A stretch of 64,000 nt of DNA from Treponema sp. UBA6852 (lineage in GTDB: Bacteria; Spirochaetota; Spirochaetia; Treponematales; Treponemataceae). Position 1 is the first letter of the stretch; every line of letters starts with the position of its first letter. Position numbers and translations under genes: made by a program. Location: NCBI RefSeq assembly GCF_002449305.1, contig NZ_DKDI01000034.1. One strand, written 5' to 3'. The notes under the pieces were generated by a model. It did not search any database and was not told where the DNA came from. It was given only the letters and a program-made list of their open reading frames with translations. This document shows positions 21,087 through 22,775 of this stretch, in pieces.

Positions 21087-21273
21087 TATAGCACTAGGAA
21101 TAAAATCTTAAAAAGAAAGCAACTGAAACAAAAGCGCAAAAACTTCTTATTTAAGATTTTATAACTTTATATACATTTTTTTTAATTTTATGCACTGAAT
21201 TTAAAAAAATCTTTAAAAAGATACCATAAATAAAAATAGTTTTAAAGTGGAAAAAGAAAGACAAAGGATTTTT

Positions 21274-21368
21274 GTCAGCACCCCTTGCAAAGAATTTTGG
21301 TCAGGGGGTCTTGCAAGTACACGTCAGGGGGTCTTGCAAGCATTTGTCAAGGGGCCTTGCAAGAATAT
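21274..21368. repeat. tandem array of about 4 imperfect 23-bp repeats (core GTCAGGGGGTCTTGCAAG)
   Basis: Two adjacent 23-bp units (21300-21322, 21323-21345) share an exact 18-nt core. Divergent units flank them on each side. Each unit contains the palindrome CTTGCAAG. Confidence 0.85.
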
Positions 21369-21415
21369 GCCATCCTATATGACGTGCACACGTAAGAACA
21401 TGATGTAGAATGTTG

Positions 21416-22345
21416 CTATTTTGCAGTGCGGACAACGCGGAAGCCATAGTCGTCGGAGCAGTTGTCTGGGTAGATGCCGACCCGAAAGGCAAGTTGCACG
21501 TAGGTGTCGAAGTATTGCCAAGCCCCACCGCGCTGAATGCGTTCAGAACCAGAAGCCGAACCTGAGTTTGGAGTGTCGCTTGATATGCTTCCGTCTCTTC
21601 TATCCCAGCACCATTCCCATACATTTCCGCTCATGTCGTAAAGTCCGTAGCCGTTTTTATTCTTGGTCTTTACATCTCTTGTTCCTTTTGTATTCCTTGC
21701 ATACCATGCTACCTTGTCTGTATTGTCGCTTCCAGCATACTCGTAGCTTTCGCCGCCACGCGCAGCCCATTCCCATTCTGCCTCTGTAGGAAGACGGTAG
21801 CCGTCCGCTTCAAAGTCGCATGTCGCGGCATTCCATTTACTGTCACTTGAAGCCGGAACTGTTCCCCATTCGCTTGGGTCTGTTTTTCCGTCAATTGAAT
21901 AGCAAGGGGTTAAGCTTTCTTTTATAGAAAGCGTATTGCAGTACACAAGCGCGTCATACCAGTTGATATTGTTCACAGGGTTGTTTTTTACATTGTCATC
22001 ACCTGTAAGCTCATTTCCGTCCTTGTCATAAGCATCGGCTTCGCTTGGGTCGCTGCCCATGACAGTCTTGTATTCTGCCCTCGTTACCTCATGGTCGCTC
22101 ATATAGAACGAGGCAACTTCAAGTTTACGTCCGCTTACGAATACTTTTGATTCTGGCGTCCAGTTTTCTGTTCCGTCAATCGAAGCGGCAGGAATTTTTA
22201 CAAAGTTTTCAGAAACCTGCCCGCTGCTACTAGCGCCGCTTTCAGAACAATTATTTGAGTCATCATCATCACTGCTGCATCCTGCAAACGAAAATGCCAA
22301 AGCAAAAACCGCAAATATAGACAAAATCTTAGTAATCTTTTTCAT
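21416..22345 (-). CDS. FGE-sulfatase (SUMF1-like) domain lipoprotein
   Basis: Lipobox FSFAGC. GNVWEWCWD and RGGAW motifs are typical of the formylglycine-generating-enzyme fold. The gene has markedly higher GC than its neighbours. Confidence 0.75.
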   Translation of the reverse strand: MKKITKILSIFAVFALAFSFAGCSSDDDDSNNCSESGASSSGQVSENFVKIPAASIDGTENWTPESKVFVSGRKLEVASFYMSDHEVTRAEYKTVMGSDPSEADAYDKDGNELTGDDNVKNNPVNNINWYDALVYCNTLSIKESLTPCYSIDGKTDPSEWGTVPASSDSKWNAATCDFEADGYRLPTEAEWEWAARGGESYEYAGSDNTDKVAWYARNTKGTRDVKTKNKNGYGLYDMSGNVWEWCWDRRDGSISSDTPNSGSASGSERIQRGGAWQYFDTYVQLAFRVGIYPDNCSDDYGFRVVRTAK

Positions 22346-22393
22346 AAACTTGCCCTTAAAAAGGAATTCTGCTAAAAAAATTCAGCAACGCTC

Positions 22394-22420
22394 ATTTTAC
22401 CCCCCCCTAAGTTTTGTCAA
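22394..22420 (-). promoter_or_regulatory. sigma70-like promoter with a G8 tract in the spacer (TTGACA-aaactta-G8-TAAAAT)
   Basis: Minus strand: -35 TTGACA (22415-22420), 15-nt spacer containing G8 (22400-22407), -10 TAAAAT (22394-22399), 48 nt upstream of the ATG at 22345. Confidence 0.6.
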
Positions 22421-22455
22421 GTACTTTTGAAAATTTTTGAATAAAAAAACAAAAC

Positions 22456-22484
22456 TTGCCTTTTTAGTAAATTTCAAGTATTAT
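22456..22484 (+). promoter_or_regulatory. sigma70-like promoter (TTGCCT-17 nt-TATTAT) for the ferredoxin gene
   Basis: -35 at 22456-22461 and -10 at 22479-22484, about 57 nt upstream of the ATG at 22542. Confidence 0.5.
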
Positions 22485-22541
22485 TTTTTAGAAGGCTTCT
22501 ATTTTTTAGGAGTTTTCCACACACACAAACCGAGGTATTTT

Positions 22542-22712
22542 ATGGCTTACAAAATTTCATCGGAATGCATCAACTGCGGAGCGTGCGAAGGCGAATGTCC
22601 TTCAGAAGCAATCAGCGAAGTAAACGACAAGCGTCAGATTAATGCTGACAATTGCGTAAGCTGCGGATCATGCGCTTCTGTATGTCCAGTTGGAGCAATT
22701 TCAGAAGAGTAA
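22542..22712 (+). CDS. 2x[4Fe-4S] ferredoxin (56 aa)
   Basis: CINCGACEGECP and CVSCGSCASVCP cluster motifs. A GAGG Shine-Dalgarno lies 7 nt before the ATG at 22542. The upstream extension of the listed ORF (from 22437) is unlikely to be translated. Confidence 0.85.
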   Translation: MAYKISSECINCGACEGECPSEAISEVNDKRQINADNCVSCGSCASVCPVGAISEE

Positions 22713-22737: not shown

Positions 22738-22775
22738 GCTGTTCAGGAACATTTTCTTGAGCAGCTCTTTTTTTT
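22738..22775 (+). terminator. rho-independent terminator after the ferredoxin gene
   Basis: 10-bp stem gctgttcagg/cttgagcagc (two G-U pairs), 8-nt loop, then TCTTTTTTTT running directly into the next ATG. Confidence 0.65.

Follow-up and report, generated by a model that had tools for sequence, protein, structure and literature searches.

Genes and predicted promoter at the locus

In the window, by which we mean the whole 64-kb stretch of Treponema sp. UBA6852 DNA that was analysed (GC content 37.6%), a lipoprotein gene on the minus strand is divergent from a small ferredoxin gene on the plus strand. A LysM/M23 peptidase gene follows the ferredoxin gene, and recA lies downstream of the lipoprotein gene. 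The intergenic region between the divergent pair contains a run of eight G residues placed within the predicted promoter of the lipoprotein gene. The features of the locus are listed here in the order in which they are met from the ferredoxin gene towards recA.

22542-22712, plus strand: ferredoxin gene, 2x[4Fe-4S], 56 aa, divergent from the lipoprotein gene.
22415-22420, minus strand: predicted -35 hexamer TTGACA, with 6/6 consensus positions and the same in 9/9 cassette variants (alignment A1).
22408-22414, minus strand: non-repeat part of the spacer, AAACTTA; AATCCCC, AATCTCT or AATCCC in other variants, in which the G tract is kept.
22400-22407, minus strand: G8 homopolymer, the proposed slippage tract (C8 on the plus strand).
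22394-22399, minus strand: predicted -10 hexamer TAAAAT (TACAAT in variants B and D).
22369-22388, minus strand: leader stem-loop UUGCUGAA UUUU UUUAGCAG, conserved, at or near the predicted transcript start.
22353-22357, minus strand: ribosome-binding site AAGGG, 7 nt 5' of the ATG, as read from the sequence.
21416-22345, minus strand: TvpA-like lipoprotein gene, 309 aa (Pfam FGE-sulfatase PF03781, E = 1.6e-39; C-type-lectin fold).
22277-22345, minus strand: lipoprotein signal peptide MKKITKILSIFAVFALAFSFAGC with lipobox FAGC and Cys23, recognised by sequence features only.
21431-21532, minus strand: C-terminal segment resembling a DGR variable region (RGGAW...GFRVV), a scaffold common to homologues.

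A TvpA-like product

The protein is an exact match to WP_296690296.1 of Treponema sp. UBA6852. Its relatives carry the names Treponema succinifaciens or uncultured gut Treponema, and the related contigs include Hadza gut samples. The initial annotation had called the product an FGE lipoprotein. The second half of this name was supported by the lipobox signal peptide, but the first half was not: the top solved structure was 2Y3C, the T. denticola variable protein TvpA (E = 3e-47), whereas true FGE structures scored about 5e-14, more than 30 orders of magnitude worse, and the NCBIfam matches were all far under their cut-offs with no equivalog reached. These scores rule out a true formylglycine-generating enzyme, and the label 'FGE family protein' is misleading for this gene. 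TvpA is a C-type-lectin-fold lipoprotein and a target of the T. denticola diversity-generating retroelement, or DGR (PMC4891356). The window gene shares with it both the homologous FGE/C-type-lectin fold and the lipoprotein signal, and judged by homology its product is a TvpA-like, DGR-family lectin-fold lipoprotein, which is predicted to be exposed at the cell surface.

The C-terminal segment has the RGGxW...GFRVV scaffold of a variable region together with NNC-rich codons of the AAC-derived type: 16 of its 24 codons end in C, compared with 70/275 in the remaining gene (p = 6e-5). Neither a template repeat, or any second copy of the segment, nor a reverse transcriptase was found within the 64-kb window. 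The segment has one and the same sequence in 13 loci (at least 8 samples) and the differences between alleles reach past it, so that adenine-directed diversification confined to the variable region was not seen to be ongoing. From these sequences, active retro-mutagenesis is not evident at the window gene.

The gene is nevertheless a hot spot of strain diversity. Up to 160 of its 930 nt differ between strains, in mosaic blocks, compared with at most 1.2% in the flanks; alleles of 308, 309 and 312 aa occur, and the ORF is split in two assemblies. Several contigs stop within the gene, including two obtained by the recA look-up, which yielded no further contig extending as far as the promoter. 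In L089 (at about 2288 in L087 coordinates, equivalent to about 22060 of the window) and in L138, the gene is broken by a 168-bp insertion with a 9-bp direct repeat AGCCTTGTA at its flanks, imperfect terminal inverted repeats and two internal hairpins, and in these features the insertion resembles a MITE. L101 and L102 have a hairpin akin to those of the insertion, ATTGCCGTACTTGATACGGCAAT, between their ferredoxin and lipoprotein genes. On the other side of the gene, three to four tandem copies of a ~23-nt unit, GTCAGGGGGTCTTGCAAG, occupy window positions 21262-21372, between the lipoprotein stop codon and the recA upstream region. They are kept in L099, which has no lipoprotein gene, and therefore probably belong to recA regulation.

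A G8 tract in a short promoter spacer

The minus strand of the window reads AGTAC-TTGACA-AAACTTA-GGGGGGGG-TAAAAT-GAGCG, with a hexamer spacer of 15 nt and with 48 nt between the -10 hexamer and the ATG at 22345. This arrangement is the one that the initial annotation had described, and its positions were confirmed in the sequence, as was the claim that the tract is the longest G/C homopolymer of the window. It is in fact the only G/C run of at least 7 nt, and the second longest is a C6 at 38327. From base composition, 0.19 runs of at least 8 nt are expected per 64 kb, and a G8 run by itself is therefore just mildly unusual. Its placement exactly between TTGACA and TAAAAT is not plausibly a product of chance. 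The window has here a homopolymer of at least about 7 nt between the -35 and -10 hexamers of a predicted sigma-70-type promoter, the arrangement by which promoter-spacer phase variation is recognised.

Other roles for the tract were also considered. The tract lies 55-62 nt 5' of the ATG and outside every ORF, which rules out an in-ORF frameshift role; one G8 tract alone cannot make a G-quadruplex; and the site has no hairpin followed by a U run as an intrinsic terminator would.

The length of the spacer was compared with promoter spacing elsewhere in the window. Hexamer pairs with at most one mismatch in each hexamer occurred 13 times at 16-17 nt spacing in the whole window, against 5.2 expected from Markov shuffles, and at all other spacings the counts were at expectation, with no enrichment. 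Therefore, in line with the usual sigma-70 rule, 15 nt is sub-optimal in UBA6852 too, as the initial annotation had assumed. A by-eye check found no acceptable alternative in the form of a shifted hexamer pair with 16-17 nt spacing. A consensus promoter scanner misses the site because it takes spacers of 16-18 nt only.

The leader downstream of the promoter folds with -9.4 kcal/mol over 46 nt (leader plus start codon; z = -1.4), a value that is statistically weak alone. In alignment A1, its hairpin shows a compensatory change from G-C to A-U in variant C (L101/L102) and a G-U pair in the window. This pattern of conservation suggests that the stem-loop has a function.

Tract length varies between closely related strains

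The initial annotation had proposed that tract length be compared across related strains. We carried out this comparison in 26 assemblies, the window and 25 others from this and sister Treponema lineages, whose loci were gathered by exact-protein look-ups with the lipoprotein, the peptidase, the ferredoxin and allele P0021. The tract was G7, G8 or G9, giving spacers of 14-16 nt, and its flanks and the control tracts were essentially invariant. The lengths are those of assembly consensus sequences, and many of the samples belong to three accession series, which probably represent three studies, and are only partly independent of one another. All four promoter sequence variants (4/4) showed variation in tract length.

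Variant A (window type), AAACTTA-Gn-TAAAAT: G8 in the window and 11 other assemblies; G9 in 3 (L085, L089, L090).
Variant B, AATCCCC-Gn-TACAAT: G9 in 5 assemblies; G8 in 1.
Variant C, AATCTCT-Gn-TAAAAT: G9 in L101; G7 in L102.
Variant D, AATCCC-Gn-TACAAT: G9 in L100 and L107; G8 in L004, a paralogous locus in the MAG shared with L107.

The commonest spacer is 15 nt in variant A and 16 nt in variant B. The expectation that gain of G would bring the spacer to 16-17 nt was borne out for the first step, since a natural G9 with a 16-nt spacer occurs on the variant A background in three samples; for the second step it was not, as none of the 26 assemblies has a 17-nt spacer.

The length differences occur on nearly identical backgrounds. 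L119 and L120 align over 3001 nt with zero mismatches and a single gap, which is one extra G, and over 2293 nt L085 and L084 differ only in the G and at one mismatched position. Identity is 99.5% between L090 (G9) and L095 (G8), and 99.2% between L101 (G9) and L102 (G7). Therefore, the tract has changed length independently at least five times. A tract that is polymorphic in length between close strains while its flanks are unchanged is a further mark of promoter-spacer phase variation. L089 and L090 have both G9 and one gene allele in common, indicating a tract stable enough for inheritance from one host to another.

As controls, A/T tracts of 7-8 nt in the 6.9-kb locus were followed through the same strains, and only 1 of 14 varied. 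The varying one is a T8 at about 22766-22775 of the window (L087 2993-3000), in the ferredoxin-peptidase intergenic region directly 5' of the M23 peptidase start, and it is T9 in the related strains L093 and L098. In P0104, a paralogue of the same species that has no poly-G, the 130 nt upstream, with runs of T7, A6 and T7, are identical in 10 assemblies. At a second TvpA-like locus without poly-G, from a related species, the upstream sequences of 20 assemblies are identical or one SNP apart.

Two JGI contigs also touch the region. L081 bears the promoter sequence. L086, a short contig with the gene, begins 13 nt past the -10 hexamer (L086 1-20), with the tract about 19 nt away; this start could reflect an assembly break at a heterogeneous homopolymer, although it is not conclusive. 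A scan of genome contigs gave homologues of at most 63% identity among the matches listed, none of them from the species itself.

The tract moves with the lipoprotein gene

In the lineages compared in alignment A1, conservation extends from just 5' of the -35 hexamer, at ACTTGACA, and the DNA upstream of this point is unrelated between them. Between these two hexamers and the ATG, conservation takes in the hexamers themselves, the G tract, the leader hairpin and, beyond them, the first codons; within the spacer the G tract is retained while the remaining bases differ between lineages. The flanking genes of these lineages are only 84-91% identical and the lineages are therefore distinct species. 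The cassette begins at the -35 hexamer and ends with the signal peptide, and three or more species-level lineages accordingly share it.

Related Treponema differ in what they have between recA and the ferredoxin gene (window 21087-22541), which makes this a plastic slot. The Hadza-gut lineage L099 has nothing there, the L100/L107 lineage has an inverted lipoprotein gene, and in two others the orientation is that of the window. L099 has neither the lipoprotein gene nor the tract, and the ferredoxin upstream region of about 100 nt is still there. In L100 and L107 the cassette is inverted along with the lipoprotein gene. In L004 the gene is duplicated and the cassette stands at another locus, with no ferredoxin gene nearby. 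These rearrangements, as read from the contigs, show that the tract belongs to the lipoprotein gene. The surveyed TvpA-like loci P0104 and P0033/P0071/P0049 have no poly-G, nor do most of the TvpA-like loci examined; the tract is therefore specific to this cassette and not a family-wide trait.

Poly-G tracts and DGR-like elements in related Treponema

An in-ORF tract, by which translational phase variation is recognised, is absent from the window gene and was found in three genes of related Treponema MAGs. The TvpA-like genes of L001 (2525-2534) and L015 (2794-2803) and a neighbouring lipoprotein gene in L012 (622-631) have a G10 inside the part that encodes the signal peptide. In all three (3/3) the frame is broken at the G10 as assembled, and a G9 restores a precursor with a lipobox, making these tracts candidates for translational phase variation. 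Together with the promoter tract, they would make poly-G a device of transcriptional as well as translational control around this family.

Two further arrangements were noted. A repeated coding sequence, AVPGGAVEFDEVDAGSYT, contains an in-frame G8 and is present on two contigs of one MAG (tract at L003 494-501 and L004 5008-5015). In a goat-abomasum Treponema MAG (L009 2341-5450), an FGE-domain ORF ends in an Asn-rich, template-like segment, RGGSWNNNASNCAVSNRNNNNPYNRNNNNGFR, and is followed by an HRDC-domain gene and then a reverse transcriptase; this layout agrees with the DGR core known from T. denticola.

A proposed expression switch and its alternatives

Five things were observed directly: how the promoter is built, that the cassette is conserved, that tract length varies recurrently on identical backgrounds, that the tract belongs to the lipoprotein gene, and that other promoter-like sites in the window favour 16-17 nt spacing. 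On this footing we propose, with a probability of roughly 0.7, that the G8 tract, located in the promoter spacer of the TvpA-like lipoprotein gene, is a simple-sequence contingency locus and acts as a slippage-driven expression switch. Slipped-strand mispairing at replication, the probable mutational mechanism, would add or remove one G. Each such change would shift the -35 hexamer against the -10 hexamer by one base pair, or about 34 degrees of helical turn, and spacers of 14, 15 and 16 nt would bind RNA polymerase more or less well. The lipoprotein would in this way be turned up and down, or on and off, in a heritable yet reversible manner. Under the usual sigma-70 spacing rule, the G8 of the window (15 nt) is predicted to give low or no transcription, while a 16-nt spacer (G9) should give an intermediate level and a 17-nt spacer (G10) the full one. 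The selective agent may be host IgA, phage or a changing ligand.

The main alternative, which we regard as unlikely, is that the promoter is static or mildly tuned and weak, and that G7, G8 and G9 are near-neutral indels at a mutable site with no adaptive switching. This would fit the spacers, which are all 14-16 nt and never 17 nt, as well as the single length common to many samples and the co-inheritance of G9 with one allele in L089 and L090. The lack of a 17-nt spacer, together with 15 nt as the commonest state of variant A, means that the gene is mostly low or off, or else that tract length matters less than assumed. A neutral run of G8-9 in a genome of 38% GC should decay, however, and the tract has been kept in the three or more species-level lineages and in the paralogue while the adjacent spacer and the upstream DNA diverged. 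Length has also changed on at least five backgrounds, and the in-frame and out-of-frame poly-G tracts of the sister genes form a pattern typical of contingency loci.

Sequencing or assembly errors at an invariant homopolymer would be a far less probable source of the length differences. Homopolymers are prone to such errors, and some of the minority-length contigs have low coverage (L085 5.7x, L098 4.0x), but G9 is also present at 13.6x and 14x, and the G9 of variant B recurs in five independent assemblies (ENA, NCBI, Logan). The gap between L101 and L102 is two G residues, and A/T tracts of equal length are stable in the same contigs. No assembler bias was seen: SPAdes, MEGAHIT and JGI assemblies alike gave differing lengths, and did so over a coverage range of about 3x to 41x, and an assembly artefact is therefore unlikely. 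Least probable of all is that the tract, as C8 on the plus strand, serves the divergent ferredoxin gene, for example as an upstream promoter element; the best promoter-like site of that gene, TTGCCT-17-TATTAT (22456-22484), is only about 50 nt from the tract, but control of ferredoxin expression is ruled out by L099, where the gene and its upstream region persist and the tract is gone, by L100 and L107, where the tract is on the far side of the inverted gene and about 1.3 kb from the ferredoxin gene, and by the L004 cassette.

The contingency-locus reading may be extended, as a tentative proposal that we think could be right but somewhat doubt, to the cassette as a whole. The -35 hexamer, poly-G tract, leader hairpin and signal peptide would then be a portable unit, which copying would have carried to TvpA-like lipoproteins at different loci and in different species of gut Treponema, and together with the poly-G tracts of the sister genes would form a two-tier system of variation: stochastic on/off slippage in one tier, and in the other a binding site diversified through a DGR or recombination. 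Such a combination is not known to have been described for DGR-type variable proteins.

Significance

The mechanism proposed here is not new, being of the porA/tp0126 type; the host group and the gene family are. Poly-G phase variation in Treponema was previously documented for the syphilis agent, and the same device is now seen in treponemes of the T. succinifaciens group from the gut of humans and animals. The proteins concerned belong to another family, that of the lectin-fold lipoproteins, which in T. denticola are diversified by a retroelement. In the literature searched, no paper describes poly-G control for gut Treponema genes or for DGR-type variable proteins. For cultivable treponemes, a comparative study gives G/C tract counts only (PMC8049484). 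If confirmed, the switch would mean that commensal gut spirochetes, too, run contingency loci on surface proteins. The gene would then stand out as one on which host or phage probably exert pressure, and would provide a concrete locus for tests on existing metagenomic reads.

Comparison with known systems

The initial annotation had pointed to T. pallidum, where poly-G tracts lie upstream of tpr genes, and this precedent is real. According to PMC7864442, tprE/G/J and tprL have poly-G upstream, and tracts of at most 8 G's are permissive. The window gene resembles the tpr genes in that poly-G stands upstream of members of a paralogous surface-protein family with a common promoter sequence. It is unlike tprL, whose tract overlaps the -10 region and leaves the hexamer spacing unchanged.

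Closer still is tp0126, the OmpW homologue of T. pallidum, for which the same source places the poly-G between the -35 and -10 hexamers and gives optimal transcription at 17 nt (PMC7864442). The two share the genus, a poly-G tract in the spacer of a sigma-70 promoter and an envelope protein gene under its control. The tp0126 product is a beta-barrel OMP in a pathogen, whereas the present one is a TvpA-like lipoprotein of an uncultivated gut commensal lineage, known from sequence and with 14-16 nt states only.

With TvpA itself, the product has in common the lipoprotein signal, the FGE/C-type-lectin fold and the C-terminal variable-region scaffold. It differs in its setting, a 64-kb window with no template repeat or reverse transcriptase, and in a segment that stays the same across the eight or more samples.

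Outside the spirochetes, the nearest arrangement is porA of Neisseria meningitidis, in which spacers of less than 17 nt lower or abolish transcription, as summarised in PMC7864442 with reference to van der Ende 1995. The window promoter is like that of porA in having the homopolymer within the -35/-10 spacer; it differs in that porA belongs to an unrelated phylum and encodes a porin, while the gene here encodes a lipoprotein. In the 1995 work of van der Ende, porA spacers of 17, 16 and 15 nt are said to have given high, medium and no expression, respectively. Variable surface lipoproteins under such control are known from Mycoplasma hyorhinis, where each member of the vlp family has a switching homopolymer between its -35 and -10 hexamers. 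The vlp tract is poly-A and its organism is unrelated, whereas the tract described here is poly-G.
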